A program made the position numbers and the translations under genes. Positions 34,103 to 63,308 of a DNA stretch of 64,000 bases are shown here, in pieces. How positions within the stretch are numbered: position 1 is the stretch's first letter; each line of letters begins with the position of its first letter. The notes below the pieces were generated by a model. The model had not been told where the DNA came from. It worked only from the letters and a program-made list of their open reading frames with translations, and made no database searches. Source of the stretch: Candidatus Poribacteria bacterium (lineage in GTDB: Bacteria; Poribacteria; WGA-4E; PCPOR2b); the NCBI GenBank assembly GCA_965208325.1, contig OZ242326.1, positions 1,792,001-1,856,000 of the forward strand. Reading direction: 5' to 3'.

Positions 34103-36970
34103 CTAAAACAACGTCCGAAATAGAAACTTGATGTTACGCCCCGGCTCAGGCATGACCGATTTGATTCTCGAAAGGTGTTGGCGATATTCGGAGTCGAGGA
34201 GGTTTTCGATTGCGAACACCGCTTGATGTTGGAGCCCCCAAATCGAAAATAAATACTGGCAGCCCAAATCATAGGCGATGTATCCGTCGGTAGGCTCCTC
34301 AAATTCGCCTAACCGATGCTGCGAATTCGCGAATCTTGCCGTCAAATGGAGGTTCAACGGCTCAGTCACGTATCGGAGCGCTATTTTCCCGTTGAGGGGC
34401 GGCATCCGTTCAATGGGCAGTTCACTATCTTTTAAAGTCCCTCTGACGTAACTCGTGCGCACTTGCGCGTGCACTCGCGGCACAATCTCGGCGTCAACGG
34501 TCAACTCGGCGCCGTCAAGGACGGCATCCAGTCCGCGGTATTGGTAAATCCACAACCAGCCCGCGGCACCGCTGCCCCATTCCTTTTCACCGGTGTTTGC
34601 CGGAATCAGGTAACCGTAAATCTGGTTGCTGAAAATTGCTAGATTCAGTTTTAGCCGATTCCCCTTATAGCGCAGAAACGCCTCTGTTCCCCAGCCGTTC
34701 TCGGTGCCGAGTTCAGAGTTGCCGATTTCGTAGGAGTAGGCTGCCAGGTGAGGGCCATCCGAGAAAAGTTCCTCAATTCCTGGAGCGCGGAAGGTTTTCA
34801 TCATCGTTGCGCCCGCCTTCAAACCGCCGGTCCAATGGTAGATGCTAGACACGGCGCCTGACACGCCTCCGAAGTTTCGGCGACGGACTATTCCCGCCGC
34901 GGTCACTGTTCCCGTCGTGAATGGTTCAACTCGCTTGAAGTCGTAGCGAACCGCACCTTGCAGCGTGAAATCGCTAACTTTCTTCTGATTGAAGTAGAAG
35001 CCTGCGATAGACATTTCCCGCGCGTGCGGCGTCCAGTAGAATCCGCCGGTTGAATGATCGCGATATTCGCTCCACACTCCGGTTATGGCGTCATCAGACA
35101 GATGAGCCAGCGCGGACACATTGGTGGTCAACGCAATAAATTCGACGCCGAGCGTCTTGTTGGATTCAAACTCTTGATGTTGATATCGCGTGTGAGTTGA
35201 ATGAATTTTCAACTTCTCAAAGAACGAGCCATTGATTGAATACTCAAAGTTACCTTCATACCGTTGTCGATCGAGTTCGATATTGACTCCGGAGATGTGT
35301 CCTTCCGGCGATCCGGGGATACCGTAATCTGATCGGTTTCGCCCACCCGAAATACCAAGGTGCCCCCAATTCTTGACCACGGAAGCGCCGCTTGAAAAAT
35401 TGGTGTTTGATAGTGAGGTGTTCTCCAAGATACCAACGGGAGTGCGCGTATCGTCGGCATAGCGGCGATTCCATGCCAATCGCCACGCAAGGTCCCCGAT
35501 TGGAATCGTCAATCCTGTTGTCGCGGTAATTCCAGAATTGACAGATTCGCCCTGAAACTTGAGGTCTACGGAAGGGTGATGAGGCAAAGTCCGCGGGACG
35601 GTTTCGCGTTTGACATCTACGACGCCGCCGAGCGTGTTTGAACCGTAGATAAGCGATGCGGGTCCGCGGATGACCTTGATATTTTTTGCGGTGCTCGGAT
35701 CTATCACGACCGCATGGTCGGCTGCGGACGCCGATTTATCGCCGGTGCGCTCGCCATCCTCAAGAATGAGCAATCGGTCACCGCCCATACCCCGGATGAC
35801 CGGTCGCGCCACGGCGCGCCCCATCGACCGCTGTGCGACACTCACCTCATCGCGGAGTGCATCGGCGATGGTTATTCCCATCTTCGCATCCAGCTGTTCC
35901 TCTGAGAGTACGAGGCTAGTAGTTATTTCAAGCTGAGCGAGGACATCATCGTCAGGCGTGACCAAAATCTCTTGCAGTTGTACCACGCTGCCGTCCATCG
36001 AAACGGTTAATGCCGGTAGATTCGGTGCGAGTCTCGCGAAAAACCCGTGCCTGCGCCCATCCGCCGAATCATAGTGTCCGACGATAGACCCGTCCTGATT
36101 GATATTCCAGCCCTCCGTGCTAATGCTGTTCGGAACCGTAAATTCCTGCAGTCCGTCGCGGAACGTTCCGACATAGGTACGTGTGACACCATCCGCCGGT
36201 TTGGCCCGGGAAACGACAACCGTTGCATCGTTGATACCGTGCACAAAATAGAATTCCAGTCTTTCGGCATGTGAAATGTCGAGCGATACAAACGTGCCTT
36301 TCGGGGTACGAATGTATGGATGAAACAAGCCATCAGCGTCTACGTAGCTTCCCACCATACCACCGCTCGCGTTCACGAAATCGGCGTATGTTTCTGACGC
36401 CCCGGGGAACTCAATTACTTCGTCTCCCGAGAATCCGCGGCGAATCCCGGAAGCATCTATATAATTACCCGTCAGTGCCCCGGTCGTATCACTAATACCG
36501 TAAATCTCCGTTTGGACCGCACCTGGAAAATCGTATTGCCGCAACACGCCATTTTCCAAGATTACACCGTGGTACAGACCATCGCTATTCTGGTAGTGGC
36601 CTGCAGCTATCCCTGTGTTACCGAGTGCATAAAAATAGGTGTTCAGCGAGTCGGGGAAATCGTGCGTTAAAAATTCACCGTCAATTAGCGTAAAGCCGAT
36701 TATTTTTTCACCATCAGCGCTTTTTGTGTTGCCCGCGAAATCGCCGCGGTCGCTACTCGCAGTCAACTCTAAAAACTCCACACCGGGAACATCAATCGTC
36801 TCGACAGTATAGTTGGTGCCGCCGATTGCAACAACGGGATTATCGCCGTCCTGCGCATCAGTGCTTTTTAAGAAAAATGAATTGAGGTACATTATCAATA
36901 CAAACGTGCAATACCAAGTTGCATTCGGAGGTGTTGTTTTCATCATGCGAAACGTCCTCTTCAGTTTCAT
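34103..36970 (-). CDS. TonB-dependent receptor (ZnuD-like) with an N-terminal extracellular repeat domain
   Basis: Plug ARPVIRGMGGDRLLILEDG...RGPASLIYGS, FRAPGIEELFSDGPH, C-terminal MPEPGRNIKFLFRTLF. N-terminus has about 6 (D/E)FPGA..T...IN..G..G.Y...G..HGF repeats. Confidence 0.93.
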   Translation of the reverse strand: MKLKRTFRMMKTTPPNATWYCTFVLIMYLNSFFLKSTDAQDGDNPVVAIGGTNYTVETIDVPGVEFLELTASSDRGDFAGNTKSADGEKIIGFTLIDGEFLTHDFPDSLNTYFYALGNTGIAAGHYQNSDGLYHGVILENGVLRQYDFPGAVQTEIYGISDTTGALTGNYIDASGIRRGFSGDEVIEFPGASETYADFVNASGGMVGSYVDADGLFHPYIRTPKGTFVSLDISHAERLEFYFVHGINDATVVVSRAKPADGVTRTYVGTFRDGLQEFTVPNSISTEGWNINQDGSIVGHYDSADGRRHGFFARLAPNLPALTVSMDGSVVQLQEILVTPDDDVLAQLEITTSLVLSEEQLDAKMGITIADALRDEVSVAQRSMGRAVARPVIRGMGGDRLLILEDGERTGDKSASAADHAVVIDPSTAKNIKVIRGPASLIYGSNTLGGVVDVKRETVPRTLPHHPSVDLKFQGESVNSGITATTGLTIPIGDLAWRLAWNRRYADDTRTPVGILENTSLSNTNFSSGASVVKNWGHLGISGGRNRSDYGIPGSPEGHISGVNIELDRQRYEGNFEYSINGSFFEKLKIHSTHTRYQHQEFESNKTLGVEFIALTTNVSALAHLSDDAITGVWSEYRDHSTGGFYWTPHAREMSIAGFYFNQKKVSDFTLQGAVRYDFKRVEPFTTGTVTAAGIVRRRNFGGVSGAVSSIYHWTGGLKAGATMMKTFRAPGIEELFSDGPHLAAYSYEIGNSELGTENGWGTEAFLRYKGNRLKLNLAIFSNQIYGYLIPANTGEKEWGSGAAGWLWIYQYRGLDAVLDGAELTVDAEIVPRVHAQVRTSYVRGTLKDSELPIERMPPLNGKIALRYVTEPLNLHLTARFANSQHRLGEFEEPTDGYIAYDLGCQYLFSIWGLQHQAVFAIENLLDSEYRQHLSRIKSVMPEPGRNIKFLFRTLF

Positions 36971-37232: not shown

Positions 37233-39851
37233 CTAAAACAACGTCCGATATAGAATCTTGACGTTACGCCCCGGCTCCGGCATCACCGATTTGATTCTAG
37301 AAAGGTGTTGACGGAATTCAGTATTGAATATATTCTCGACAGTGGCTACAAATTGATGTTGAAGTTGCCACATTGAGAACACTACCTGCAAGCCGGCGTC
37401 GTAGACGAGGTACCCGTCTGTCTTTTCTTCAAATTCGCCTAGCCGCTGCTGGTCGTCCGAATACCGCGCTGTCAAATGCAAATTTAACGGTAGGGTAACG
37501 TAGCGCAATGCCACTCGTCCGTTGAGCGGCGGGATGCGTTCGAGCGGCAACCCGCTTGCCGCCAAAGACCCTTTGACGTAACTCATGTGCGACTCTACAT
37601 GAATTCGCGGGAAAATTTCGGCGTCAATACTGATTTCGGCACCGTCGAGGATAGCGTCTTGCCCCTGGTATTGATATATCCACAGCCACCCTGCTGCGCC
37701 GCTACCCCATTCCTTTTCCCCGGTTTGGGTCGGGCTCAGATAGCCGTAAATCTGGTTGCGAAAAACGGCGAGATTGAACTTCATACGGTTGCCTGAATAG
37801 CGCAGAAATGCTTCCGTACCGAAGCCATCCTCCGAACCGAGTTCAGCGTTGCCGATTTCATATGAAAATACCGCGAGATGCGGACCGTCGGAAAAGAGTT
37901 CTTCAATTCCGGGCGTGCGGAATGTTCTCATGAACGTGGCGCCCAACCCAAGGTTTTCGTTCCATTGATAGATGCTTGAGACTGCGCCTGACGCGCCTCC
38001 GAAGTCGCGCTGCTGTACCTTTCCTGCACGTATTTCGACACCTTCAACAAACGGCTCAACCCTTTTCGCGTCGTAACGAAGCGCTGCCTGTAGTGTGAAG
38101 TGGTTGTATCGCTTCTGTTTGAAGAAGAACCCCGCCAAAGATATCTCCCGGGTGTGAGGTGTCCAGTAAAACCCACCCGTCGCATGGTCGCGATACTCGC
38201 TCCAAATTCCTGCAACTGCATCGCCGCGCAAGTGCAGCAGTGCGGTTGTGTTGTATGTCAATACACCGAACTCCACGCCGAGCGTGTTGTTGGATTCATA
38301 CTCTTGGTGTTGATAGCGCGCGTAGGTCGAGTGCAGCTTAATTTTTTCGAGAAACGATCCCTCAAACGCGTATTCCAGATTGCCCTCATACCGTTGGCGA
38401 TCGAGGTCAATGGTAACACCTTGGATGTGGCCTTCGGGCGAGCCGGGGATTCCATAGTCTGAACGGTAGCGGCCGCCGGAAATCCCGATGTGCCCCCAAT
38501 CCTTTACCACTGAAGCACCGGTTGAAAAATTGGTGTTTGATAACGACGTGTTTTCCAAAGTACCGACAGGTGTTTGAATATCGCCGGCGCGGCGGCGGTT
38601 CAGCTCCAACCGCCACGCGAGGTTACCGACCGGAATCGTTACTCCTGTTGTTCCGGTCAGCCCTGAGTTTACCGATTCACTCTGAAACGTGAAGTTCATC
38701 GTCGGCTGGTTGGGGAGAGTTTGCGGGATGGTCTCGCGCTTGACGTTGACTACGCCGCCGAGTGTGCTTGAACCGTAAAGCAGCGACGCTGGACCACGCG
38801 TGATCTCAATCTTTGCCGCGGTAGTTGGGTCAATCGCAACGGCATGGTCAGCAGAGGATGCCGATTTATCGCCTGAGCGCCCGCCGTCTTCGAGGATGAG
38901 CAGACGGTTACCGCCCATTCCCCGGACAACCGGCCGTGCTGCCGATCGCCCCATCGTGCGCTGGGCGATTCCTAGCTCTCCACTAAGGGTCTCGGCAATA
39001 GTTGCGCCCATTTGTTGATTTAGCTTCTGATCAGAGAGTTTGAAATCGGTTGTTTTCTCAAACCGAGCGAGTTCGTCATCGTCAGCCGTGACAATGATTT
39101 CACCGAGCTGGACCGTGCTAGGTTTTAATTTTACATCCAGCCTTATCGGATCCGCATTGACAGCAATTTTCTGATTTAATGTCTCATAACCAACGCACAT
39201 GAATTGCATTCCATGTGTCCCCAACACAATTTGACCAAACTGAAACAGCCCAGTTTCATCAGTTCGCGATTGGATAGTCTTCCCCGCGGCAACAAGGGTA
39301 ACCTCGACGTCCGAGATTGGATTTTTCGTCTCAGCGTCAATCACTTGTCCTGAAACGGAAACGGTGCGGGGCGCGGACAATCCGTCTACATTATGCGTCA
39401 AGAGAATGGCAAAAAGAGAGAACGTAAAAAGTTTAATTGGAGTTATTTCTTTGACCTTGTTCGACAATTTGCAGAGTTGACACATACGGCAGAGATGGCG
39501 ATTGATGAGGTGAACAACTGCTAGCAGAAGTCCGCCCATAGCTATGAAGATTACTTCGCTCCCCTCTGATGCGTGAAACCGTGCAATGTAGATGAGTGTT
39601 AATGCACCACCGAGCATTAGAAACACTCGCCATTTTCGGTGGTGCCGATAGCCCCACGTGAAACTGCCGACAGCAACTCCCACTGCGCCGACAACCAACG
39701 CCAACTCCGCTGACTCGCTGAGAATAAACCCAAGCCCAACCAGAGGCAATACGGTCATCAAGAGCGGGGCTGCCATACAGTGGACGGCACACGCAAACGA
39801 CAAGCATGCGCCTACATTGTCCACGACTGTGTGATTCAGATATCTGTTCAA
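37233..39851 (-). CDS. MerC domain fused to a carboxypeptidase-regulatory-like domain and a TonB-dependent receptor
   Basis: aa 1-131 are near-identical to the stand-alone MerC at 61993-62391. Then a signal-like segment, VSGQVIDAETKNPI...TDETGLF, a plug, and a barrel paralogous to 34103-36970. Confidence 0.9.
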   Translation of the reverse strand: MNRYLNHTVVDNVGACLSFACAVHCMAAPLLMTVLPLVGLGFILSESAELALVVGAVGVAVGSFTWGYRHHRKWRVFLMLGGALTLIYIARFHASEGSEVIFIAMGGLLLAVVHLINRHLCRMCQLCKLSNKVKEITPIKLFTFSLFAILLTHNVDGLSAPRTVSVSGQVIDAETKNPISDVEVTLVAAGKTIQSRTDETGLFQFGQIVLGTHGMQFMCVGYETLNQKIAVNADPIRLDVKLKPSTVQLGEIIVTADDDELARFEKTTDFKLSDQKLNQQMGATIAETLSGELGIAQRTMGRSAARPVVRGMGGNRLLILEDGGRSGDKSASSADHAVAIDPTTAAKIEITRGPASLLYGSSTLGGVVNVKRETIPQTLPNQPTMNFTFQSESVNSGLTGTTGVTIPVGNLAWRLELNRRRAGDIQTPVGTLENTSLSNTNFSTGASVVKDWGHIGISGGRYRSDYGIPGSPEGHIQGVTIDLDRQRYEGNLEYAFEGSFLEKIKLHSTYARYQHQEYESNNTLGVEFGVLTYNTTALLHLRGDAVAGIWSEYRDHATGGFYWTPHTREISLAGFFFKQKRYNHFTLQAALRYDAKRVEPFVEGVEIRAGKVQQRDFGGASGAVSSIYQWNENLGLGATFMRTFRTPGIEELFSDGPHLAVFSYEIGNAELGSEDGFGTEAFLRYSGNRMKFNLAVFRNQIYGYLSPTQTGEKEWGSGAAGWLWIYQYQGQDAILDGAEISIDAEIFPRIHVESHMSYVKGSLAASGLPLERIPPLNGRVALRYVTLPLNLHLTARYSDDQQRLGEFEEKTDGYLVYDAGLQVVFSMWQLQHQFVATVENIFNTEFRQHLSRIKSVMPEPGRNVKILYRTLF

Positions 39852-39968
39852 TTATTGGCTCCTAACGTCATACGTTACTTTTACCGGTTTCCGCTTTGCC
39901 GGTCCGGCATGCCAAATCCGAATTAATCGCTAGATTTGGCACGCTGACAGGCAAACTTATGTCTTCGG

Positions 39969-40601
39969 TTACGGCGTAACCGTTACGGGAATCAAGAGCG
40001 CCGCCGTGAAATCGGGATGGTCGCCGTGCATGAGTTGGAGCTTGATTTGCGTTTGACCGGCTTTAAGCCCTTTTACCTCAAAGGTGAATTGCTCGGCAAG
40101 CTCATCGCCGTGTTCATCGTGTTCCTCATGCTCATCATGTTCCTCATGCTCATCGTCATCGTCATGCTCATCGTCATCGTCGTGATCATCATGCTCATCG
40201 TGTTCGTCGTGATCGTCGTGGTAAAGGTGTACCTCAATGATTGATGAATCATATCCGCTGAGCGCTAAAGCAAACACCTCTTCCTCGCCATGTTCGTGGT
40301 CGTGGTCGTCTTCCTCTTCCGGATTCTCAGGAAAAAATTCATGGCTGTCGTGGTCAAGGAACGCGGTCAGAACGTCGAGTTCCTCTCCGACTTTGAGCGT
40401 GATACCTCCCGAATGCTCCCCTTCAAATTGACGGTATATCTCGTTCCCGTCAACCTTGAGGACAAAACCGTCTGCATCGGCGTGAAAGGGTTCATCGTCA
40501 TGGCCATTGTCGACAATAGGATTGTCGTCTTCACCGCAAGCAGCGAAAAGTGCAACAGATATGAGTAACAACAACGTAAAACGTAAAACAGGTGTAAACA
40601 T
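39969..40601 (-). CDS. His/Asp/Glu-rich lipoprotein, putative metal scavenger/chaperone, copy 1
   Basis: RBS GGAGG before ATG 40601. Lipobox LFAAC. About 40-aa HDE low-complexity tract. C-terminal LMHGDHPDF. Confidence 0.85.
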   Translation of the reverse strand: MFTPVLRFTLLLLISVALFAACGEDDNPIVDNGHDDEPFHADADGFVLKVDGNEIYRQFEGEHSGGITLKVGEELDVLTAFLDHDSHEFFPENPEEEDDHDHEHGEEEVFALALSGYDSSIIEVHLYHDDHDEHDEHDDHDDDDEHDDDDEHEEHDEHEEHDEHGDELAEQFTFEVKGLKAGQTQIKLQLMHGDHPDFTAALLIPVTVTP

Positions 40602-40760
40602 AATTTCCTCCAGACATAGATAGACTGTATTTCCCAAGCATCACGACTGATGAAACAGTGAAAAATAGGCAGACTACTGCCGAGACTATACACAAGTCAG
40701 CCGGGAAAGACAGATAAAGATTTGGTCAATAAAGACAGCGATATGAGATAAATGAGCAGT

Positions 40761-41066
40761 TTAAACGGGGATAGTCGGCGGGGCGCGACTCCGGACGCAT
40801 TTGTCAAGAATCGTAGAAATGAAAGGTAAGGTGATTGGTCGGCGAATTGAGATGCAGATGTCGAGATTGGTGACATCAACGGGGGTGAGTTCGATACCGA
40901 CGTGGTTGGCATTGAAGAAACAGGCGGAGCAGTGTTCTGAACAGCAATCAACATGCTCATGGTCGTGCGCAAGCGAGATAAGGTTTACCGTTATCAGGTA
41001 ATAGACGATTCCAATCGCTATTGCCCAGGCCACGCTGTTTGGGTGGATTCTAATCTTCTGCAACAC
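40761..41066 (-). CDS. DUF2946/CruR-like leader protein (TM, HDHEH, CxxC, RAPP), copy 1
   Basis: Hydrophobic N-terminus, AHDHEHVDCCSEHCSACFF, C-terminal RSRAPPTIPV. First ORF after the promoter. Conserved in copy 2. Confidence 0.85.
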   Translation of the reverse strand: MLQKIRIHPNSVAWAIAIGIVYYLITVNLISLAHDHEHVDCCSEHCSACFFNANHVGIELTPVDVTNLDICISIRRPITLPFISTILDKCVRSRAPPTIPV

Positions 41067-41112
41067 TCCTCACCTCATTCATACGTACGAAAATTCGCCA
41101 ACACAGGACAGT

Positions 41113-41141
41113 ATATTAGCACAACCGATCGGTTTTGTCCA
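41113..41141 (-). promoter_or_regulatory. Sigma70-type promoter with a palindromic spacer
   Basis: TGGACA-17 nt-TAATAT with extended TGn. Spacer contains AACCGATCGGTT. Conserved in copy 2. Confidence 0.7.
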
Positions 41142-41321
41142 ATTTTTCTGTTTCAAAAAATCGAACCCAGTGGGTATGACCGCCAATTCATCGCACTGAT
41201 TGAGCTAATGATATTGTTGATTCACCCGTCATCGGTAGTAAAGTTTAGATTAAAAGATTTCTATCCAGTCTCTCCTAAAATGCTGTACTATTTCCAATTT
41301 GGATTTGGCTTGCGCGTTGGC

Positions 41322-42611
41322 TCATTGGGGCTGTCTTTCGACCCCGATGGTGTGGACAATCAGGTTAACGCCCCATTCTAGCCACCTTTCATTCTCGGAA
41401 TTTTCTCCCCATTTTAATCCAATTCCAGCGGCGTCGTAGAACACGGCGGTTCGTCCATTGAGCCTAAGCGCATAAAATTCGCCGCGCTTTTTGACGACAC
41501 GCGGCGCCCCTTTCTTAAATTCAAAAAAGCTGCGGCAGACGGCATCCTTTCGATTTATCGGCACGAAATGTGCTTTCTGACCGACAATCTTCCAAACCTC
41601 GAATCGAATGGAGTTTGCCACGGGACCTTCAGTCCCCCATGCGGTGGATATGTCCGAAAAAAGGAGCGTTCCGCCGCTCTGCAGGTAGGTTCGCAGGTTC
41701 GCGCGCTCCGTTTCGGAGAAGGTAAACGCATCTCTGGCTGCGATGTAGACTAGCGGAATGCGGTGAATATCGGGCGAAGCAAGCGGCATCGTCTCAGGCA
41801 AAAGTTGCGTCCGTACCTTCGTCCATCTATTCATCGCATACACCAAGCGATTCAAAGCTTGGGCACGAATGGCATCTGCCGCGTCCTCGTATTGGACAAC
41901 GACGATATTGTAATACCCTGTAATCGCACGTCCGGAACCGCGTACCTCCACCTGAGCCGTGTTTCCCGCGTTACTTTGAATTTTGTCAAGGATGCCGGCG
42001 GCACGGCTTGGCGCAATTACCTTTCCCTCAGAAGCCATTCGTCCATCTATCGGCGAACTGCTCACTGACAAGTTGGGTTGGGAAACCGCATCCGCACTTA
42101 GCTCAACGTTCGTTTGGAATTCGGTCTCCGCCACCGGATTCAAGCTTACCCGAGCGGGGGAGTGCACGACTGTTGCTGATTGCGTTGCCAGGGGTCCCGT
42201 GCGAATCGGCACCGCAGCGACACGCCGGTTAATTGGATTCTTTCGATCCATGTCAACCGCGGCAATCTGCCGGTGCGGCCGTTTTCGGCGTTTGAGCGGC
42301 GATGGGTTCGGCAACGACACAACCGCCACTTGTATGGCAGACTCCGCAACTGGGTGCGGAGTAGGCAACATCGCCACCCATAAAAGGATAAAGGCGTTCA
42401 GCACAAGTGATAACAGCCAAGCTGTTGCGGCAATTCTCCGCCGACGGGCGACTGTAGGTAAGCGCGGCGCGGCTAACACTTCCTTTTTGCGTCCGGCAGT
42501 GAACTTGGGGCGTGACGGGAGCGATTCGGAATATTGGCGTACCTTACGGCGTCTACGCTTTGCCCTAGTGTAATTCAAGCGAGCAATTTGCCGATAACGT
42601 GAGTGATTCAT
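41322..42611 (-). CDS. Membrane-anchored DUF4159 domain protein
   Basis: TM segment, low-complexity linker, then PLVYI...FTFSETERANLRTYLQSGGTLLFSD...WGVNLIVH. Confidence 0.8.
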   Translation of the reverse strand: MNHSRYRQIARLNYTRAKRRRRKVRQYSESLPSRPKFTAGRKKEVLAAPRLPTVARRRRIAATAWLLSLVLNAFILLWVAMLPTPHPVAESAIQVAVVSLPNPSPLKRRKRPHRQIAAVDMDRKNPINRRVAAVPIRTGPLATQSATVVHSPARVSLNPVAETEFQTNVELSADAVSQPNLSVSSSPIDGRMASEGKVIAPSRAAGILDKIQSNAGNTAQVEVRGSGRAITGYYNIVVVQYEDAADAIRAQALNRLVYAMNRWTKVRTQLLPETMPLASPDIHRIPLVYIAARDAFTFSETERANLRTYLQSGGTLLFSDISTAWGTEGPVANSIRFEVWKIVGQKAHFVPINRKDAVCRSFFEFKKGAPRVVKKRGEFYALRLNGRTAVFYDAAGIGLKWGENSENERWLEWGVNLIVHTIGVERQPQ

Positions 42612-42875: not shown

Positions 42876-45800
42876 CTATTTTTCGCTTGCGTACGCGCGA
42901 TAATCCTCGGTGCGGAATATTGTCCACAGTTCTGTAGACAGATCATAACGACACACACCAGCAGAAAACGTACCTACCCACACGTATTTGCCGTCCAGGC
43001 TAATGCTGCGGATGTTGTTGTCGGATAAGCCATTATCAATGTTGAATCTATCCCACCGTTCTTCGGCGCGGTTGTATCGGCTGAGTCCTTCGCCAGCGGT
43101 GCCAACCCAGACGTATTTTTCGCCTGCAGTGATTGTACTGATGTCGTTTCCGATGAGTCCGTCTAACACTGTTAGCGTTCCCCACCGCCCTTGCGGCGCA
43201 TTGTACCGGAATACGCCTTGTCTCGTGCCGACCCACATGTTTTCGGGGTCAGAAGCCAGTGCAGTGATTTCGGCATTCTTAAGATATGAAGGCACTTCAA
43301 ACGTGTTCGCCGGCGCCAGTCGTTGAGAATCTATTTCAAAAACTTTCAATCCGATTTCCCGTCCAAGCCAGAGTTGATTGTTTAGAAACGCCATCGCGGT
43401 GCAGCCTACAATCCCTAAATCTTCGGGCGTGGTTTCTAAGCTTTCAGTCAATCCAGCCCCGGTCTGCACGCGTGTATGTTCAACGATTTGAGCGTTCGTT
43501 ATCAAAAGCCAAGAGTCCGCTTTCCGGTCATAAATTGCGATTTGGTTGTCGCTGAGCACCCAAACCTTACTGTCTCGCGGCTGAATATGGCGCACCCACG
43601 GGAGAAGTGGGTGGATTTCCCTAGCCGCATTTGCGGCTTTATCGTAGATGATGACGCCCGCGTCCGTGCCAAGCCAGAGCTGGCCGAGGACGGGGGCGAT
43701 TGCTCGCACGGTCGGCATCGGCGGGAATTCGACGTTTACTGTTATGAGCGGCGACGGCACAGTCGGGTCGCCGGGTTGCGGGGTTCTGCCTTCAACTATT
43801 CGTTGAATGATTGCAATCGCCTCCTCGCGCGCGACATCTGGATGGTAATCAACGTAAACCTTGCGCGTCCGGGCGGGATTGTTAGCTTGCAAAGCGGATT
43901 CAACCGCCCGTGCATTTTCATCTACACGCCGTTGTAAATTGGCAAACTCCTCATTTTCGGCGTCATCAAGTGGAAAACCTAAATTCGCAATTCGCCAAGA
44001 GTGCGAGATCTTGTCGTATTTGGCTAAACCGAGACGAGTACCCACCCACAGAAAATCGCCATCCGACGCAACGGCTTTGATGTTGTTGCTAATCAAAGCC
44101 GAGGCATTTGATTCGATGTCTTCGAGGGCTTCCGAATAGGTTGTCCAATCGCCCTTAACCCAGTGATGCCGCGCTAATCCGGCATTCGTACCGAACCAGA
44201 TTTCATCTCCGTCAATCGCGACGACCTGTACGTGGTTGGAGGGGAGCCCATGCGCCTCGGTGAAATCGCTGGACAGGTCAGTGATCTGATTGTAAAGCGT
44301 TATGCCGTCGGAGGTGCCAATCCAGTGATATTTCTCCATTGAACCGATGCTTTTGGCGTCGTTGGCAGCGAGGCCATCCGCCTGAGAATACGGCGTCATG
44401 GATTCGACCTCCTTGTCGTACATGGTGACGCCGCCCGGCGTGGCGAGGAAGATGTACTTCTCTTCGACATTTATTGAGGTGACGATGTTGTTGATCAAGC
44501 CGTCGTCGGTGGTGTAGACCGCCCACTGACTCTCATCGGGCATGTATTTCGCCGCTCCCTGATTTGTGCCGAACCAGACGTAATCCCCATCAACCGCGAC
44601 CGACCAAACAACATCATCGGGAAGCCCGTCTTTTTTTGTCAACGTTTGCCAGGTCCCCGCCTTGGTGTCGAATCGAGAGACACCGCTCTGTGTGGTTATC
44701 CACACGCTGTTTCCGTCTCGCGCGAGCGCGTTTACGCGATTATCGCAAAGCCCATCGGCAGTGGTTAGGGATGTCCACCTATCTAAGACCCAGTTGTATC
44801 GGCTGACACCGCCGTGCGTTCCGACCCACAGTTCGTTTTCCAACAGCAACAGACTCGACACGTAATTGTGTTGAAGCCCATCTCGATTTGTATAGTTGAG
44901 CCAAGTATCCGCCGTTTTATCGTACCGGCTGATTCCCCGCGGCGTGCCGAAAAAAGCGTAATCATCGTTGATGACGATGGCGCGAATATCTTTGGCGACA
45001 AGCACTTCTTCATGACCGCGCTCGCGGCTTGGGGCGTATGCCCACCACGAATCGTTGGGCTTGTTGTACCGGTAGATACCGCCATCCGTCGCAACCCAGA
45101 CGTATTCATGCGACGGGTGAATATCATGAATGCGTACTGTTGAAAGACCCGGCGCATCATCGTCCGTGAACTCCCGTGTTTGCCCGGATGCCAAGTCGTA
45201 CCGTATCAGATTTCGCCAACCACCGCCCCAAATTTCCCTGTCGTCCAGGGCGACGACATCAATACTCGCTTCGCGGCCGATTTCCAGCTTTTGCCAGTTT
45301 TCACCTGATTTATCGTCGTGTAGATAAACGCCTGTTTCAGTGGCGACACAGGTGGTACCGCCGGATTGATCTAAAGCCAGAATAGGCATGCCTTCAAAGG
45401 CATGCGTGGTGCGCCATTTCTGCGCCGATTTTTCGTACCGAGACAGCCCACTACCTGTGCCAACCCAGAGGTATTGCGAACCCGCGGCGAGGTCTGTGAT
45501 TTTGTCATTGGCTAACCCTAACCGACTTGAGAACGCGGTCCACTCTTGCGTCGAATTGTCGTATCGGTTTAAGCCGCGTGTGGTGCCGACCCAAATCGAC
45601 TTACCATCAACCCGGATTTTCGTAATTTCATCGGCAACCAATCCACTTTTCGCCGCGCGAAAGTAATCCCACGTTTTGTTGAATTTTTCGAACCGCGAAA
45701 TTCCACGGTCGCTGCCTATCCATACGTAGTTGCCCACGACATCAAGACAGGAGATAGCCCCGGCGCCCAAGCCATCTTCGTTAGTATAGGATTTCCACCG

Positions 45801-47225
45801 TTCGGTTTTTGGATTAAACCGACTTATTGCTTTCTGAGTCACCAGCCAAACGCCGTCGGTGTCCTCACCAACTGCCAGCACATACGCGGAGGGAAGCGCT
45901 TTCTCTTTACGGTACGTTTTCCACCGGCCGGAAACCGAGTGAAACTGTGAAAGTCCGTGTATAGTTCCAATCCAGATGGTGTTTCCCTTGATCGCGAGAG
46001 AATTAATTTCGTTTGATGCCAATCCCATATCTTGATGGAACCACTGCATGGTTCCGAGTTTTGTGTCGAAATTGAGGAGTCCGTTTCCCGTCGCCATCCA
46101 GACTCGGCCCGCCGAGATTGCCAGGGCTGCAATTTGATTCGGTATCAACTCCTGGGTATCACGATTCTGTACGGCGTTCGACGGGACGAAGACCTCCCAG
46201 CCGAGCGTTTTCCATGTGTCGACCTCCCGTTTGTTGAAAGCACGCATAGCGCGTTCATACTCCGAATCGGCAGCGCGCGCCTGAGCCCGCGTTGGATTCC
46301 GCGAAAATTGCCGATTTCTTGCCCGCACGGAGGCCGAGAAATGTTGCGGTTCTTTCAGTTTGCTATAGGCTTTATCCTCATTGGCGAGGTCGGTGGTGTT
46401 CATAAATTTCTTGCTGATAGTGCGGACAAGCCCCGATTTCGTCGCAATATAGACACTATCGCCATTCGCTTCAATGTCCGTAATTGAATCGCCCAGAATG
46501 TCCATAATCGAATTAGGCACTATCTCCCGGCCGGGGCGCGGGACCGAGCGATTGCCGCCCCGGGTGCTCACCCAAAAGGCACTCTGTTTGGTGAAATACT
46601 CCCACTTATCATACTTAACGTTATATCTCGATAGTCCGCCGGGGGTTCCCAGCCACACGTACTTTGAATCGTGATGAATCGCTGTTACGGACGGAGTTTT
46701 AATTCCCAAAAAGTCTGTGTATGAACGCCACCGATTCTTCTTCAATTGAAACGCACTCGCCCCCTTTTCAGTGCCCACCCAGATCCAGTCGCCGCGCGCT
46801 GAAATACACCGAATCTTGTTTGCAACCAGCCCGTCCTTGACGGTATAGCTTCTCCATTCGTCTCGGTTCATGTCAAAAACCGATAGCCCGGAATCTGTCC
46901 CGAACCACACGCGCCCGGACGGCTTTCGATCGAACACGCCCTGCTTCCACTCGATAGCGATGCAATTCACCTTATTGCTGACGAGCCCATCCTTCGTTGT
47001 GAAATAATCCCATGTTTTCGCGTCAAAATTGTACCTGCTGACGCCGGCACCGGTTGAAAGCCACAGATAATCACCGCCAATCTCGACCCCGCGCACATCC
47101 TCGCCAATTAACACCTCGCCCATCTCGTCTTCATCGGACTCTGTCTCCGGCACGTCCATGGTGAACAGTAGGCTCAACAAAATAAACATTTTGCATACAC
47201 ATTTGATTGACCTCGGAAAAGTCAT
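42876..47225 (-). CDS. Large secreted multi-beta-propeller protein (Reg_prop-like repeats)
   Basis: More than 20 repeats of (D/E)GLxxNxIxxIxxDGxxLWxGTxxGLSRYD. Signal peptide. No kinase domain. Confidence 0.9.
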   Translation of the reverse strand: MTFPRSIKCVCKMFILLSLLFTMDVPETESDEDEMGEVLIGEDVRGVEIGGDYLWLSTGAGVSRYNFDAKTWDYFTTKDGLVSNKVNCIAIEWKQGVFDRKPSGRVWFGTDSGLSVFDMNRDEWRSYTVKDGLVANKIRCISARGDWIWVGTEKGASAFQLKKNRWRSYTDFLGIKTPSVTAIHHDSKYVWLGTPGGLSRYNVKYDKWEYFTKQSAFWVSTRGGNRSVPRPGREIVPNSIMDILGDSITDIEANGDSVYIATKSGLVRTISKKFMNTTDLANEDKAYSKLKEPQHFSASVRARNRQFSRNPTRAQARAADSEYERAMRAFNKREVDTWKTLGWEVFVPSNAVQNRDTQELIPNQIAALAISAGRVWMATGNGLLNFDTKLGTMQWFHQDMGLASNEINSLAIKGNTIWIGTIHGLSQFHSVSGRWKTYRKEKALPSAYVLAVGEDTDGVWLVTQKAISRFNPKTERWKSYTNEDGLGAGAISCLDVVGNYVWIGSDRGISRFEKFNKTWDYFRAAKSGLVADEITKIRVDGKSIWVGTTRGLNRYDNSTQEWTAFSSRLGLANDKITDLAAGSQYLWVGTGSGLSRYEKSAQKWRTTHAFEGMPILALDQSGGTTCVATETGVYLHDDKSGENWQKLEIGREASIDVVALDDREIWGGGWRNLIRYDLASGQTREFTDDDAPGLSTVRIHDIHPSHEYVWVATDGGIYRYNKPNDSWWAYAPSRERGHEEVLVAKDIRAIVINDDYAFFGTPRGISRYDKTADTWLNYTNRDGLQHNYVSSLLLLENELWVGTHGGVSRYNWVLDRWTSLTTADGLCDNRVNALARDGNSVWITTQSGVSRFDTKAGTWQTLTKKDGLPDDVVWSVAVDGDYVWFGTNQGAAKYMPDESQWAVYTTDDGLINNIVTSINVEEKYIFLATPGGVTMYDKEVESMTPYSQADGLAANDAKSIGSMEKYHWIGTSDGITLYNQITDLSSDFTEAHGLPSNHVQVVAIDGDEIWFGTNAGLARHHWVKGDWTTYSEALEDIESNASALISNNIKAVASDGDFLWVGTRLGLAKYDKISHSWRIANLGFPLDDAENEEFANLQRRVDENARAVESALQANNPARTRKVYVDYHPDVAREEAIAIIQRIVEGRTPQPGDPTVPSPLITVNVEFPPMPTVRAIAPVLGQLWLGTDAGVIIYDKAANAAREIHPLLPWVRHIQPRDSKVWVLSDNQIAIYDRKADSWLLITNAQIVEHTRVQTGAGLTESLETTPEDLGIVGCTAMAFLNNQLWLGREIGLKVFEIDSQRLAPANTFEVPSYLKNAEITALASDPENMWVGTRQGVFRYNAPQGRWGTLTVLDGLIGNDISTITAGEKYVWVGTAGEGLSRYNRAEERWDRFNIDNGLSDNNIRSISLDGKYVWVGTFSAGVCRYDLSTELWTIFRTEDYRAYASEK

Positions 47226-47961: not shown

Positions 47962-50900
47962 CTACCTTCGTTTTTCGACAACGTAGTAAAGCACTGGTAG
48001 GACGAGCAGCGTCAAGAGCGTTGCGGTTATCATGCCGCCGCTGATGACGATTGCGAGCGGCTTCTGAAGTTCTGCGCCTGAACCGTGGGCGAGCGCAAGC
48101 GGCAGCATTCCTAACCCGGTGGTCAAGGCTGTCATCAACACTGGGCTGATGCGTTCTCCGGCGCCTTTCAACACGGCGTCGTACAGCGAGATGCCTTCCG
48201 CACGAAGGCTGTTTATGTGCGTCACCAATATAATGCCATTTCGCACAGCGATGCCGAACAGGAGGATGAATCCCACCATAGATGGAATACTCAAAACGCC
48301 GCCAGTGAGAAAAACGCTGATGACGCCGCCGATTAACGCGAGCGGCAGGTTCAGCATCACCAACAATGAAAGCCGCATTGAACCCGTCGCAAGATACAAC
48401 AGGATACAGATGCCGACGAGGACAAAGCCGGTTTGAACCAGAATCCGTTTTTGCGCCGCTTGTTGGCTTTCAAACTGTCCGCCGTAGGTGAGGAAATACG
48501 CTTCGGGCAGGTTAATATTTTCGTTAATCTCCCGTTGAGCTTGAGCAATAAAGTTGCCTAAGTCTCGATTTTGAACGTTACACTGAATTACAATCCGCCG
48601 AGATACGTTTTCTCGGTTGATGGTATTCGGCCCGAACCCGTATCCGACATCGGCAACCTGTTTTAACTGAACGAAAGTTCCGGCAGGCGTTCTTAGTTTT
48701 AAGTCTCCGACAGATTCAATAGTGTTGACAAGCGTCGGGTCAATTCGAATCACGAGCGCATACTGCCGTTGCCCTTGAATGACTTGACTCACCGCTTCGC
48801 CTTTGAACGCTGTCTCTGCGAAATGCGTCACATCTTCAACGCGTAAGCCGTAGCGAGCTGCTTCACGCCGCTTGACCTTGATTTGGAGTTGCTCGACTTG
48901 CGCCTGTTGCTCCACCCACAGGTCCACCACGCCGGGAATTTCCGCGATAACCGACCGAATCTCTTCGGCCTTTTGCCTGAGGGTGTTTAGATTTGGCCCA
49001 AACAGTTTCAACGCTACTTGTGCGTTTACACCCGACAGGAGGTGGTCAAGGCGATGCTGAATGGGTTGACCAATGGAGACGTGCACACCGGGGAAATTTT
49101 CCGCGGATAGCAAAGAACGCACTTCGGCAAGTAGTTCCTCACGAGTTTTATCTCTCTCATCGGGGGGAATAAAGTTCACTACCATTTCGTGGGTATCCAC
49201 GCTGTGAGCATGTTCATCGGTTTCTGCCCTCCCGGTACGGCTGCTGACGCTTGTCACTTCCGGAAGCGTCAGGAGTCTGGATTCCATCTCACGACCGATG
49301 CGCGTGGATTCTCCCAACGAAGTTCCCGGCGGCGAGTGGACCGCCACAGAAAAGGTTGCTTCATCCATAACCGGAAGGAATTCGCGGCCCAAGCGGGGTA
49401 TCGACATTATAGTCAAGGTAATCAGCAACAACGCCAACGCAACAACAAGCCACCGCAGCCTCATGACCCAAGAGAGAACAGGTCGATATGCCAGTTTAAT
49501 CCATACAACCACGGGGCTTTCCTTCGCGGCCGGAATTCCTGATTGGGATTCATTTTGCGAACGCCGCATTCGGAAACGTGTCAACAGCAGGTCACTTAGT
49601 ACGGGAACCACGGTTAGCGCGACGAGCAGCGATGCCGCCATTGAAATGACCACCGCCCAACCAAGGGGGCGGAACATACTGCCCTCCATACCGCTCAAGT
49701 TGAAAAGCGGTACGAAAACGAGGATGATAATCAGCGTCGCGAAGACAATTGATGACCGAATCTCATTACTTGCGCGTGTTACAACCTGCGTCGGCGTCTC
49801 GCCGTTTGCTTCGCCCCGGGCGCGGCGCCGGAAGTGCTCCTGCAATCGGCGGTAGATGTTTTCGACGTAGACAATGGCGTCGTCAACTACCATACCAACA
49901 GCGATCGCCAAGCCAGCGAGCGTCATGATATTGAGAGTACCACCCTGAGAAATCAGGGCAATGACAGCTATGATTAGAGAGAGCGGAATGGCTGTCAGTG
50001 TAATTAAGGCGGTGCGAATGTTGAATAGAAAGATAGCCAAGATTATAACGACGAGAATTGCGCCGTCACGCAACGCATCTTTAACAGTATCTACGGCGCG
50101 CCGTATCAGATCGGCTTGCGCATACTCGATTTTAACCTCAACGCCTTCCGGCAGCGACCTTTCCAGCGATTTTAGGACGGAAACAACTTTGTCGTTAAGG
50201 TTTAACGTATTGATCCCCGGTTGCTTAACCACCTTGCCCAAAACCGTCTCTTTCGCATTGCGGCTCCCTGCGCCGCGGCGTATTTCTGGCAGTTCGCCTA
50301 TCTTCAACCTCCCGATATCTTTGACCAGAATCGGCGTGCTGTGCCCCCGCACATCAATGACAACGTTTTCGATGTCGGCAACTGTAGAGATACGCCCCAA
50401 CCCGCGAATCATCAACTCGCGCGTATCCTTGATGAGAAATCCGCCCGCTGAGTTTTCGTTGCTTTTCGCAAGGGCATCTGCAACATCTTCCAGCGAAAGA
50501 TTATAGTTTACCAACTGGGCAGGATTAACGAAGACTTGGTATTGCTTCACGTAGCCGCCAATGTTAATTACATTTGCGATACCGCCCTGGGACTGGAGTT
50601 GATAGCGGATGACCCAATCTGCGAGATCCCGCATTTCCATTTCGTCAAATTCCCCGGTTTCATCAACAACAGCGTACTCTAAGATTTCGCCCAAAAGGGA
50701 GGAAGTCGGCAAGATAATCGGCGCATCCACGCCGTGAGGTAGATTCGGGGCAACGAGTTGAAGCCGTTCAGAGACCATTTGCCGCGCCAGAAAAATATCC
50801 ATTCCCCAATCAAATTCAACGAATACCAGCGACAGGCCAACGGCGGAGGAAGACCGAACTCGCGAGACATACGGTGCACCGTTCATCGCACTTTCGATTG

Positions 50901-51102
50901 GTAACGTGACTAAGGTTTCCATCTCCTCAGGAGACCAGCCGTGCGCCTCGGTAAGAATAGTAATGCGGGGCGGATTGATGTCGGGATAGACATCAATCGG
51001 CGCCGAACGGAATACCCGAAAGCCGATGACAACTATCACAATGGTACACGCGATTGTTAGGAGTCTATTTCTGAGCGAAATTTCCGTGATTTTCGACCAC
51101 AT
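47962..51102 (-). CDS. Heavy-metal efflux RND permease (CzcA/CusA family)
   Basis: PIDVYPD, GMVVDDAIVYVEN, FGIAVRNGI, PVLMTALTTGLGMLPLA. 1046 aa. Confidence 0.96.
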   Translation of the reverse strand: MWSKITEISLRNRLLTIACTIVIVVIGFRVFRSAPIDVYPDINPPRITILTEAHGWSPEEMETLVTLPIESAMNGAPYVSRVRSSSAVGLSLVFVEFDWGMDIFLARQMVSERLQLVAPNLPHGVDAPIILPTSSLLGEILEYAVVDETGEFDEMEMRDLADWVIRYQLQSQGGIANVINIGGYVKQYQVFVNPAQLVNYNLSLEDVADALAKSNENSAGGFLIKDTRELMIRGLGRISTVADIENVVIDVRGHSTPILVKDIGRLKIGELPEIRRGAGSRNAKETVLGKVVKQPGINTLNLNDKVVSVLKSLERSLPEGVEVKIEYAQADLIRRAVDTVKDALRDGAILVVIILAIFLFNIRTALITLTAIPLSLIIAVIALISQGGTLNIMTLAGLAIAVGMVVDDAIVYVENIYRRLQEHFRRRARGEANGETPTQVVTRASNEIRSSIVFATLIIILVFVPLFNLSGMEGSMFRPLGWAVVISMAASLLVALTVVPVLSDLLLTRFRMRRSQNESQSGIPAAKESPVVVWIKLAYRPVLSWVMRLRWLVVALALLLITLTIMSIPRLGREFLPVMDEATFSVAVHSPPGTSLGESTRIGREMESRLLTLPEVTSVSSRTGRAETDEHAHSVDTHEMVVNFIPPDERDKTREELLAEVRSLLSAENFPGVHVSIGQPIQHRLDHLLSGVNAQVALKLFGPNLNTLRQKAEEIRSVIAEIPGVVDLWVEQQAQVEQLQIKVKRREAARYGLRVEDVTHFAETAFKGEAVSQVIQGQRQYALVIRIDPTLVNTIESVGDLKLRTPAGTFVQLKQVADVGYGFGPNTINRENVSRRIVIQCNVQNRDLGNFIAQAQREINENINLPEAYFLTYGGQFESQQAAQKRILVQTGFVLVGICILLYLATGSMRLSLLVMLNLPLALIGGVISVFLTGGVLSIPSMVGFILLFGIAVRNGIILVTHINSLRAEGISLYDAVLKGAGERISPVLMTALTTGLGMLPLALAHGSGAELQKPLAIVISGGMITATLLTLLVLPVLYYVVEKRR

Positions 51103-51123
51103 TTATTTGCCTCCTTGGTGCAC

Positions 51124-53151: not shown

Positions 53152-53237
53152 TTTCTTTCTCCTTGTCCTTTTTGGATAAAAAAATCCTTCAATATTGACT
53201 CACAAGATGATCGGCGGCCGGCACAGTCTGTATTCTG

Positions 53238-61992: not shown

Positions 61993-62391
61993 TTAGTTGT
62001 TCGACGTTTCGCAGTGTTGACACATACGGCAGAGGCGGCGATTGATGAGGTGAACAACTGCTAGCAGAAGTCCGCCCATAGCCATGAAGATTACTTCGCT
62101 CCCCTCTGATGCGTGAAACCGTGCAATGTAGATGAGTGTTAATGCACCACCGAGCATCAGAAACACTCGCCATTTTCGGTGGTTTCTATAGCCCCATGTG
62201 AAACTGCCTACAGCAACTCCCACTGCGCCGAATACCAGCGTCAACTCCGCTGACTCGCTGAGAATAAACCCAAGCCCAACCAGCGGCAATACGGTCATCA
62301 AGAGCGGGGCTGCCATACAGTGGACGGCACACGCAAACGACAAGCATGCGCCTACATTGTCCACGACTGTGTGATTCAGATATCTGTTCAA
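61993..62391 (-). CDS. MerC-domain membrane protein, stand-alone copy
   Basis: DNVGACLSFACAVHCMAAPLL (CxxHC), four TM segments, GYRNHR, HLIN..LC. Confidence 0.9.
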   Translation of the reverse strand: MNRYLNHTVVDNVGACLSFACAVHCMAAPLLMTVLPLVGLGFILSESAELTLVFGAVGVAVGSFTWGYRNHRKWRVFLMLGGALTLIYIARFHASEGSEVIFMAMGGLLLAVVHLINRRLCRMCQHCETSNN

Positions 62392-63150: not shown

Positions 63151-63308
63151 TATTTCCTCCAGATATAGATAGACTGTATTTCCCAAGCATCAAGACTGAC
63201 GAAACAACGTAAAACAAGCAGACTACTGCCGAGACTGTATAAAACTCAGCCGGGAAAGACAGATAAAGATTTGGTCAAAAAAACAGAGATATGAGATTAT
63301 TGAGCAAC

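Follow-up and report, generated by a model that had tools for sequence, protein, structure and literature searches.

Two probable leader genes, their promoter-like sites and their spacers

The window considered here is a stretch of 64,000 nt from a Candidatus Poribacteria bacterium (contig OZ242326.1, positions 1,792,001 to 1,856,000). It carries two short open reading frames (ORFs), which we interpret, with a probability of roughly 0.6, as regulatory leader genes of the CruR type heading two probable zinc-uptake operons. Positions are those of the window, and all of its features given with coordinates lie on the minus strand. The leader ORF of copy 1 (40761–41063) runs over 100 codons from a TTG at 41063 to a TAA stop; the ORF list began it at a GTG (41066, 101 aa), but the alignment of relatives favours the TTG, so that the leader is 100 codons long in both copies. 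Its hydrophobic signal-anchor segment (40968–41033, approximately residues 11 to 32, with Lys and Arg just before it) is followed immediately by the histidine cluster HDHEH (40953–40967), then by a CxxC motif in the form CSAC (40920–40931) and, at the C-terminus, by RAPP (codons at 40776–40787), four further codons (TIPV) and the stop. The ORF of copy 2 (63309–63611) also has 100 codons and a TTG start, with its CxxC at 63468–63479 and its RAPP at 63324–63335. A preliminary description, made from the sequence alone, had reported two ORFs of about 100 aa with an anchor, HDHEH, CxxC and a RAPP end, and both were found, on the minus strand. The two leaders are 74% identical (74/100 residues), most differences falling within the N-terminal third; the blocks HDHEHVD, SEHCSACFFNANHVGIEL and VRSRAPPTIPV are identical between them. 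Their codons differ by 14 synonymous and 25 non-synonymous changes, and the Arg of RAPP is written CGC in copy 1 and CGT in copy 2; alignment and codon comparison thus bear out the diverged N-termini, the invariant blocks and the synonymous change inside RAPP that had been noted earlier. A profile scan found exactly two leader copies in the genome. The anchor reaches a 19-residue mean hydropathy of 2.1–2.3 across copies (maximum 2.11 in copy 1); signal cleavage is doubtful, because the residue preceding the His cluster varies among members of the family (A, V, T, P, S, L or M).

Each leader is preceded by a promoter-like site, in agreement with its earlier placement as the first gene after the promoter in both copies. 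The site of copy 1 (41113–41141) consists of TGGACA, 17 nt and TAATAT, that of copy 2 (63661–63689) of TGGACA, 17 nt and TAAAAT; both have a TG ahead of the −10 element, both lie 47–50 nt 5′ of the leader start codon, and the predicted promoters are near consensus. Most relatives have an aligned site of the form TTGTCA/TTGACA-17-TGnTATAAT, located downstream of an A-tract. The leader start codon is conserved as TTG among 31 homologous loci (GTG in L027 and ATG in L031), and in the aligned upstream regions of these loci a purine-rich Shine-Dalgarno (SD) sequence is conserved ahead of it. Between the −35 and −10 elements of copy 1 lies a perfect 12-bp palindrome, AACCGATCGGTT (41123–41134), and its counterpart in copy 2 is AGCCAATTGGTT, in which the central changes preserve the symmetry. 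The palindrome is not kept outside the genus and was therefore rejected as an operator; no conserved operator-like palindrome was found at the leader promoters in the aligned upstream regions of the relatives.

The leader is separated from the next gene, which encodes a lipoprotein, by an untranslated spacer of 159 nt in copy 1 (40602–40760) and 158 nt in copy 2 (63151–63308). The two spacers align almost without gaps, as expected from the conserved spacer of about 160 nt reported earlier. Among relatives, 27 of the 31 loci entered the spacer alignment (L014, L016, L021 and L031 were left out for insertions or as unalignable); these 27 have spacers of 129–164 nt, conserved in the blocks UUUCCCGGC, GCCGGGAAA and AUCUAUCUAUAUCUGGAGGAAAUUAUG. 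The SD sequence of the lipoprotein gene of copy 1, GGAGG, is found at 40607–40611, ahead of an ATG at 40601; in copy 2, too, GGAGG precedes the ATG of the lipoprotein gene. In L014, L016 and L021 the spacer is extended to 261–385 nt by insertions with inverted repeats of their own, possibly small mobile insertions, and in L031 the alignment is lost downstream of the leader. The 25 bases before the lipoprotein SD sequence (within 40602–40640) read ACGAUCUAUCUAUAUCU in most relatives; this sequence and the first 15 codons, MFTCFFRFTLLLL, are retained at the four loci (L011, L022, L023 and L025) where a receptor gene rather than the lipoprotein gene comes next, and the initiation region therefore seems to travel with the leader as one cassette.

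Two pairings had been suggested within the spacer, and both are present in both copies, although neither gains much from comparison with relatives. The outer one joins UUUCCC (40703–40708) to GGGAAA (40630–40635) and occurs in the minimum-energy fold of both copies. It is also the sole helix, of six pairs, that RNAalifold retained for the 27 relatives, with double changes in two of the six pairs and a covariation term of −0.11 kcal/mol. The inner one is the terminator-like hairpin GGCAG-TAGT-CTGCC followed by TATTTTT (40668–40681) in copy 1; across the two copies it reads GGCAG-TAGT-CTGCC/T, with a T-run in both, and it is not conserved among the relatives. Spacer fold energies are ordinary (z = −1.26 for copy 1 and +0.33 for copy 2), and Rfam gave no relevant match for 39800–41400, the one chance-level match at E ≤ 1, to a miRNA family, lying outside the spacer. 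With no Rfam family, ordinary fold energies and almost no covariation, the spacer was rejected as a structured RNA, and evidence for an RNA switch in the window appears weak.

The leader and the start of the spacer also contain a C-rich, G-poor tract (a C>G bubble) at 40740–40950, which covers the 3′ two-thirds of the leader and represents a candidate Rho-utilisation (rut) site. The skew (C−G)/(C+G), taken over 220 nt (150 nt from the 3′ end of the leader plus the adjoining 70 nt of spacer), was 0.364 for copy 1 and 0.275 for copy 2, values reached by 0 and 3, respectively, of 1297 coding segments of equal length within the window. In all 31 relatives the last 150 nt of the leader have about 27–39% C and 13–21% G, and the genome itself encodes Rho.

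The leader family and its known relatives

A whole-genome profile scan located the leader gene in 43 of 61 related genomes (own genome included), often in two copies and often with about 6 kb between them. Leaders were extracted from 31 loci in three families of the order, and five more from a sister family brought the alignment to 36. Only six columns are invariant among these 36 leaders, the two Cys of CxxC and the R, A, P and P of RAPP. The gap between the two motifs is 44 residues in 34/36 and 45 in the other two; exactly four residues follow RAPP in 33/36, and TAA is the stop codon in 30 of the 31 close loci. All 36 have between 2 and 10 His in the 30 residues before CxxC, and in 25/36 the last HxH lies seven residues ahead of the first Cys, the His run varying in length on its membrane side. 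Other searches returned only 9 clusters with a single protein in a word-index search and four related loci, all in Candidatus Poribacteria metagenome-assembled genomes, with an 11-row alignment. A profile search of 1.84 billion representatives gave 62 clusters at E ≤ 0.001, of which 56 have RAPP, three RGPP and one RSPP, the remaining two being fragments without the motif. Among the 59 remote representatives with both motifs the gap is 44 residues in 42 and 43–45 residues in 54, and at least two His precede CxxC in 59/62. The leader profile found no sequence match among solved structures.

The RAPP codons vary synonymously among relatives (CGC/CGT; GCC/GCG/GCT; CCG/CCA/CCC/CCT), which indicates that the peptide rather than the RNA is under selection. 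As a nucleotide pattern, RAPP followed by four codons and TAA occurs five times in the genome, compared with three times for a reversed control; it is the conservation of the motif in 36/36 homologues, not this count, that places it beyond chance.

The preliminary description had compared the leaders with DUF2946 (Pfam PF11162, gathering threshold 23.7 bits), and here the hidden Markov model (HMM) gave a divided answer: the architecture is that of CruR and CutF and homologues in the sister family reach the cut-off, but the window copies themselves give no match. A six-frame scan of 176 genomes of the phylum matched five sister-family leaders at 23.3–28.4 bits, four of which reach the cut-off (one only together with its in-frame neighbours) and one of which stays below it. 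DUF2946 also matches 10 of the 36 aligned leaders at E ≤ 1, more than any other family does. Among the 62 remote representatives it matches 18 at E ≤ 0.01, of which two exceed the cut-off, where other families match once at most. In a language-model search the nearest clusters were those of DUF2946 (11 of 30, score 0.94), followed by DUF2607 (4 of 30). The leaders share with DUF2946 the CxxC, the C-terminal RAPP, the gap between them, a predicted N-terminal export or anchor helix, the first position in the operon and a long spacer; they depart from it in the score of the window copies against the Pfam threshold and in the cargo, no copper-linked family having been found among the neighbours scanned. 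We therefore place the window leaders, as far as sequence comparison allows, in a divergent His-bearing branch at the edge of DUF2946, probably homologous to it by transitivity and not threshold members, and we regard it as quite probable that they are regulatory leaders acting through arrest at RAPP and related to DUF2946 and CruR.

The prototype of DUF2946 is CruR (Bp2923) of Bordetella pertussis, which Roy et al. describe as sensing copper through its CxxC; this relieves the arrest and leads to Rho-dependent termination, with the rut site mapped to a C>G bubble within cruR (PMC9426467). The same source reports that DUF2946 members carry RAPP three residues from the end, that more than 95% of them have an export signal or an Nin-Cout helix, and that they are first in their operons and followed by long intergenic regions (162 bp for cruR-bfrG). 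The window leaders resemble CruR in heading a TonB-receptor operon, in the N-terminal export signal or anchor and CxxC, in a fixed distance from CxxC to RAPP (45 ± 1–2 in the CruR family, 44 here), in a RAPP located 3–4 residues from the stop, in an intergenic region of about 160 nt (162 nt for CruR; 159 and 158 nt here) and in the C>G tract within the leader. They differ in length (145 residues for CruR, 100 here; PMC9426467), in the His cluster seven residues before CxxC, which is not in the DUF2946 logo as described, in zinc-type rather than copper-type cargo, and in setting, the cruR locus being proteobacterial with 71% G+C and the present ones poribacterial with moderate G+C.

CutF of Rhodobacter capsulatus, placed in DUF2946 by its authors, is likewise an exported nascent-chain metal sensor that stalls at a proline-based C-terminus and controls the next gene (bioRxiv 10.1101/2025.02.05.636593). 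According to the same preprint, it differs in having CxxxC and a PPP whose stalling depends on elongation factor P, in that copper induces its stalling, and in acting on a detoxifying oxidase by way of a stem-loop that covers the ribosome-binding site; the window leaders have no conserved helix masking an SD sequence, and their cargo is for uptake. ApdA, ApdP and a set of arrest peptides from Streptomyces lividans are likewise small secretory or membrane proteins, encoded ahead of a regulated gene, with RAPP or RGPP close to the C-terminus, but ApdA and ApdP monitor Sec/YidC activity, and the metal-linked peptides of S. lividans are discussed as copper sites (PMC12992588). In that study, Fujiwara et al. 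describe RAPP as a versatile arrest core that arrests in several contexts, report that CruR arrests in vitro while its two Pro codons occupy the P- and A-sites, and find upstream ORFs (uORFs) ending in RAPP enriched before TonB-dependent receptors and metal-homeostasis genes in many phyla, in proteomes that otherwise strongly avoid RAPP except where it is used for arrest. Published work thus already covers the CruR/CutF principle and the fact that RAPP uORFs are widespread ahead of TonB receptors.

A parallel for the read-out proposed below is the tnaC-tnaA operon of Escherichia coli, in which a ribosome arrested near the end of the leader blocks Rho in a long spacer. TnaC, unlike the window leaders, senses free tryptophan inside the ribosome, arrests at its stop codon and is not exported.

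A literature search returned nothing linking zinc to such a leader; it covered main texts, and possible zinc-type neighbours may be listed in the supplements of PMC9426467 and PMC12992588. The word "zinc" is absent from the main text of PMC12992588, and Roy et al. state that no riboswitch is known for copper or zinc (PMC9426467). A paper on the Zur regulon of Caulobacter lists two DUF2946 genes as affected by Zur, one of them before czrCBA, with no comment there on mechanism.

Operon cargo, proposed control and alternative explanations

The operon of copy 1 continues with a His/Asp/Glu-rich lipoprotein gene (39969–40601; lipobox LFAAC, conserved motifs HADADG and HGDHPDF), then with a single open frame encoding a MerC-like domain (residues 11–118) and a ZnuD-like TonB-dependent receptor (37233–39851; Pfam MerC at 74.5 bits, plus Plug and barrel), and then with a second ZnuD-like TonB-dependent receptor (34103–36970). 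ZnuD was the best NCBIfam model for both receptors (190.7 and 184.5 bits), whereas the TonB-copper receptor model gave 53 and 55 bits. The operon of copy 2 encodes a His-rich lipoprotein (62509–63150), a MerC-like membrane protein (61993–62391; Pfam MerC at 82.3 bits), an ABC (ATP-binding cassette) ATPase that is ZrgC-like in role (61318–61980), a MacB/FtsX-type permease with a periplasmic domain and ZrgB-like architecture (59946–61199), a 177-residue ORF listed between the permease and the next gene, and a DUF3299 protein, of the family of ZrgE (58186–58959). Among relatives, a scan of 69 proteins at 14 loci found each of the two operon types again downstream of the leader. In the sister family the order is leader, lipoprotein, receptor, MerC, a ZnuA-type binding protein and a CobW/COG0523 GTPase, with CobW/COG0523 at 5/5 loci and ZnuA at 3/5; for the sister-family locus L071 the best NCBIfam model of the ZnuA-type protein was AztC (213 bits) and, among named metallochaperones, that of the GTPase was ZigA (193 bits). 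No CopC, YcnI, PCuAC, PepSY or cupredoxin family was found among 132 neighbouring proteins scanned. Because ZnuD-, Zrg- and ZnuA/AztC-like proteins and COG0523 are present and copper families are not, the operon context points to zinc. The earlier suggestion of ZnuD-, Zrg- and MerC-like, perhaps non-copper cargo is thereby strengthened towards a zinc-type cargo, the sister-family operons adding ZnuA/AztC-like and COG0523 genes to it, but as an argument by association and not as proof; with moderate confidence, we take zinc to be the metal sensed. The preference for Zn over Ni, Co or Cu is inferred, as is the sensing at the translocon that had been proposed earlier.

The frame at 37233–39851 results from a MerC-like gene without a stop before the receptor, so that one frame of 872 codons joins a four-helix inner-membrane domain to an outer-membrane receptor; the receptor part has a signal-peptide-like start of its own (VKEITPIKLF...). 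The same in-frame arrangement occurs in two relatives from two genera (L045:4450–7041 and L059:8758–11352; 864 and 865 codons, respectively), and in copy 2, as in other relatives, a stop codon closes the MerC gene.

The Zrg comparison refers to the Zur-regulated zrg operon of Vibrio parahaemolyticus (VP_RS01475–VP_RS01455; PMC9817125, PMC9820375), in which ZrgB is described as MacB-like (PMC9820375) and zrgE is listed as encoding a DUF3299 protein (Table 1 of PMC9817125). The copy 2 operon shares with it a His-rich periplasmic zinc binder, an ABC ATPase, a MacB-like permease and a DUF3299 protein, and differs in an additional MerC-like gene and in the fold of the His-rich protein. The preliminary description had named Zrg-like cargo in general, but for the lipoprotein a relation to ZrgA was not supported. 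Its AlphaFold2 model (mean predicted local distance difference test score of 74) is an Ig-like beta-sandwich with two disordered acidic His-rich loops; Pfam gave no match, Foldseek with the model returned only generic Ig-like sandwiches (best E = 1.1e-3), and comparison with the PDB gave no specific match, sequence matches being only to low-complexity acidic segments. Since the fold of ZrgA is described as ferredoxin-like (PMC9820375) and Pfam has no match for the lipoprotein, the latter is not considered a ZrgA homologue.

ZrgD, which belongs to DUF2607, is described as a 101-residue protein with a single helix, its gene being given as the last of the operon, beside zrgA (PMC9820375, PMC9817125), and zrgD knock-outs grew unaffected under zinc chelation (PMC9820375). 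As described, ZrgD would resemble the leaders in its length of about 100 residues and in its single helix. The DUF2607 HMM (PF10795) gave nothing at the leaders in a six-frame genome scan at E ≤ 10; it matched one of the 36 aligned leaders (E = 0.041) and one of the 62 remote representatives (E = 0.0026). Word-index searches with the leader protein and the family profile returned no protein annotated as DUF2607, and a literature search on DUF2607 found nothing on regulation.

Taken together, the loci appear to represent a real, conserved and duplicated regulatory cassette, in which a His-bearing, sub-threshold relative of CruR heads two complementary zinc-type import operons. What is seen directly comprises this conserved anatomy with its fixed spacing, the C>G tract, a rho gene and cargo of the zinc type; from it we infer an arrest, the identity of the metal, the direction of the response and a role of Rho as follows. 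The promoter would fire constitutively and the leader would be translated sparsely from its weak TTG. If little of the metal, most likely zinc, is present, the leading ribosome would arrest at the point where the first Pro codon occupies the P-site and the second the A-site. The footprint of this ribosome would reach the stop codon and, together with queued ribosomes, would cover the C-rich, G-poor tract, so that Rho could not load or catch the polymerase and the downstream genes would be transcribed. Copy 1 would then yield the lipoprotein, the MerC-like permease and the ZnuD-like receptors, and copy 2 the lipoprotein, MerC and the Zrg-like ABC importer. With ample metal, the nascent chain would bind it through its His/Cys site outside the tunnel, and the compaction induced by the metal would pull on the chain and release the arrest; the ribosome would terminate, the C>G tract would be bared, and Rho would end transcription within the 159-nt spacer, making the uptake operon metal-repressed.

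The geometry is compatible with such a scheme. At RAPP arrest the stop codon lies 15 nt past the A-site codon, where the footprint has its leading edge, and CxxC and the His run are 45–48 and 56–60 or more residues, respectively, from the peptidyl-transferase centre; these distances would place both outside the tunnel, the anchor having emerged earlier. The invariant ruler of 44 residues suggests that the position in which metal is bound is fixed with respect to the ribosome or translocon, and Roy et al. read the loss of CruR control after a 5-residue insertion in the same way (PMC9426467).

Several observations weigh against this explanation. DUF2946 gave no match at E ≤ 1 for either window leader and nothing at the leader positions in a six-frame scan of the genome. 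A CxxC is the classic ligand set for copper(I). The characterised relatives, CruR and CutF, both sense copper (PMC9426467; bioRxiv 10.1101/2025.02.05.636593). Both receptors lie far below the ZnuD cut-off of 950 bits, the L071 scores are also below threshold (AztC, 213 against 350 bits; ZigA, 193 against 600 bits), and manganese binding-protein models score nearly as high as AztC on the L071 protein. Two Fur-family genes are encoded in the genome, and Zur might also act. As to Rho, part of the C excess could reflect the codons of a peptide rich in Ser, Thr, Pro, Ile and His; moreover, the first 50 nt or so of the spacer are also G-poor and lie outside the footprint of a ribosome stalled at RAPP, so that shielding of the rut site is not assured.

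We give a Rho-type read-out a little less than an even chance, and unmasking of an SD sequence a clearly smaller one. The main rival is a translational read-out like that of CutF, which operates by SD unmasking (bioRxiv 10.1101/2025.02.05.636593): the SD sequence of the lipoprotein gene would be masked by the pyrimidine-rich last codons of the leader or by the tract after its stop, and a ribosome stalled at RAPP would unmask it. Most relatives have tail codons UUCUCC or UCCUCC, an anti-SD-like word inside the footprint of the stalled ribosome, and in partition-function folds the SD sequence pairs with RAPP plus tail at a probability of at least 0.5 in 7 of the 27 relatives (mean 0.26). This pairing probability is, however, only 0.06 and 0.08 in the window copies, and blocking the footprint made little difference to the predicted accessibility of the SD sequence (means over 27 loci of 0.12 before and 0.14 after); the consensus fold of the 27 relatives has no helix involving the SD sequence, whose best partner changes from locus to locus, and the partner proposed here would lie about 150 nt away. 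We consider such a read-out unlikely. Classical attenuation, with GGCAG-TAGT-CTGCC and the U-run as an intrinsic terminator and the outer helix as the alternative structure, would make use of a hairpin that is followed by a T-run in both copies, but its stem has only five pairs and the number of such sites is at the level of chance (1, against a mean of 1.6 in shuffles). In addition, 13 of the 27 aligned relatives have short spacers from which the T-run segment is deleted, and the stem is absent from the L026–L032 group; because hairpin and T-run are not conserved among relatives, an intrinsic terminator in the spacer was rejected, and control of this kind seems highly improbable.

Two further alternatives concern what the leader senses and whether it senses at all. 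The ORFs could be functional orthologues of CruR that sense copper, with operons importing copper or a copper chelate: the CxxC and the 44-residue gap agree with the copper sensor CruR, which also heads a TonB-receptor operon (PMC9426467), His-rich segments bind Cu(II) as well, and a CusA/CzcA-family efflux pump (902 bits, above its cut-off) is encoded between the two copies. Such a role is fairly improbable in our view, as the copper-linked families of cruR operons and RAPP uORFs (YcnI, CopC, PCuAC, PepSY and MbnPH) were absent from the neighbours scanned, the ZnuD model gives the receptors 190 and 184 bits and the TonB-copper model 53 and 55 bits, and the sister-family operon has ZnuA/AztC-like and COG0523 genes. 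The leader could also be a stable small membrane protein that faces the periplasm and serves the importer as a metal-binding accessory or chaperone (the first view of CutF, and the annotation of ZrgD), in which RAPP merely slows translation. A central region, FFNANHVGIEL...CISI...FISTIL, is indeed conserved beyond what arrest would need, the Vibrio zrg operon contains a single-helix protein of 101 residues, ZrgD (PMC9820375, PMC9817125), and DUF2607 clusters were among the nearest in the language-model search (4/30). Proteomes, however, strongly avoid RAPP unless it serves arrest (PMC12992588); only the two motifs and their spacing are invariant, a weak TTG start is conserved, a long conserved spacer has no coding role, and the lack of a growth effect in zrgD knock-outs under zinc chelation (PMC9820375) would suit a regulator at least equally well. 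Such a non-regulatory role is judged improbable.

Within the reading of the two ORFs as arrest leaders of zinc-uptake operons, a more far-reaching and tentative version, to which we give odds well below even, may be formulated. The His run and CxxC, kept 44 residues from the peptidyl-transferase centre while the ribosome sits on RAPP, might close into a Cys2His2-like zinc site on emergence from the ribosome or translocon, and the pull so exerted might release the arrest and leave the transcript to Rho; in these Poribacteria the attenuator, and not a Zur operator, might be the main switch for the outer-membrane and ABC routes; and ZrgD (DUF2607) of Vibrio and Pseudomonas might be the same element. 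If true, zinc would gain a post-transcriptional sensor of a kind that riboswitch searches have not found, and a His-plus-Cys version before zinc-type importers would extend the CruR/CutF principle to a second metal. It would also explain control of zinc uptake without an obvious Zur operator by a leader that is conserved across an order of sponge symbionts and represented by at least 62 sequence clusters in the profile search. The cassette is compact (promoter, leader of 100 codons and spacer of 159 nt) and could serve to study how metal binding is converted into force on the ribosome, a question on which the invariant 44-residue ruler would give a direct handle.

Neighbouring genes and metatranscriptome contigs

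The region between the two uptake operons includes genes for the CusA/CzcA-family pump mentioned above, of the resistance-nodulation-division (RND) type (902 bits), with a CzcB/CusB-like adaptor and an outer-membrane factor (47962–54518). In the relatives L050 and L061, an OEP gene and a CusB-type adaptor gene directly follow a decayed operon of the ABC type, and L050 has truncated genes for MerC and the ATPase. Genes of restriction-modification systems (N6/N4 methylase, HNH, BsaWI-type endonuclease and Mrr) are located in or directly after the ABC-type operon of L048, L059 and L046. Upstream of copy 1 lie a gene for a DUF4159 protein (41322–42611) and one for a protein of 1449 residues (42876–47225) with propeller repeats of the two-component-regulator type and a PorZ-like N-terminal propeller.

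Among the 22 sequencing runs listed for the stretch, two metatranscriptome runs held 4% of the sampled words. Their contigs, which come from sponge and are less than 95% identical to the window, fall only on parts of 39469–40634, that is, on the lipoprotein and MerC region of a relative; such contigs cannot show transcription, transcript ends or attenuation at the window locus, and we therefore drew no inference for or against read-through from them. DNA runs from several sponge and reef metagenome studies also hold part of the stretch.

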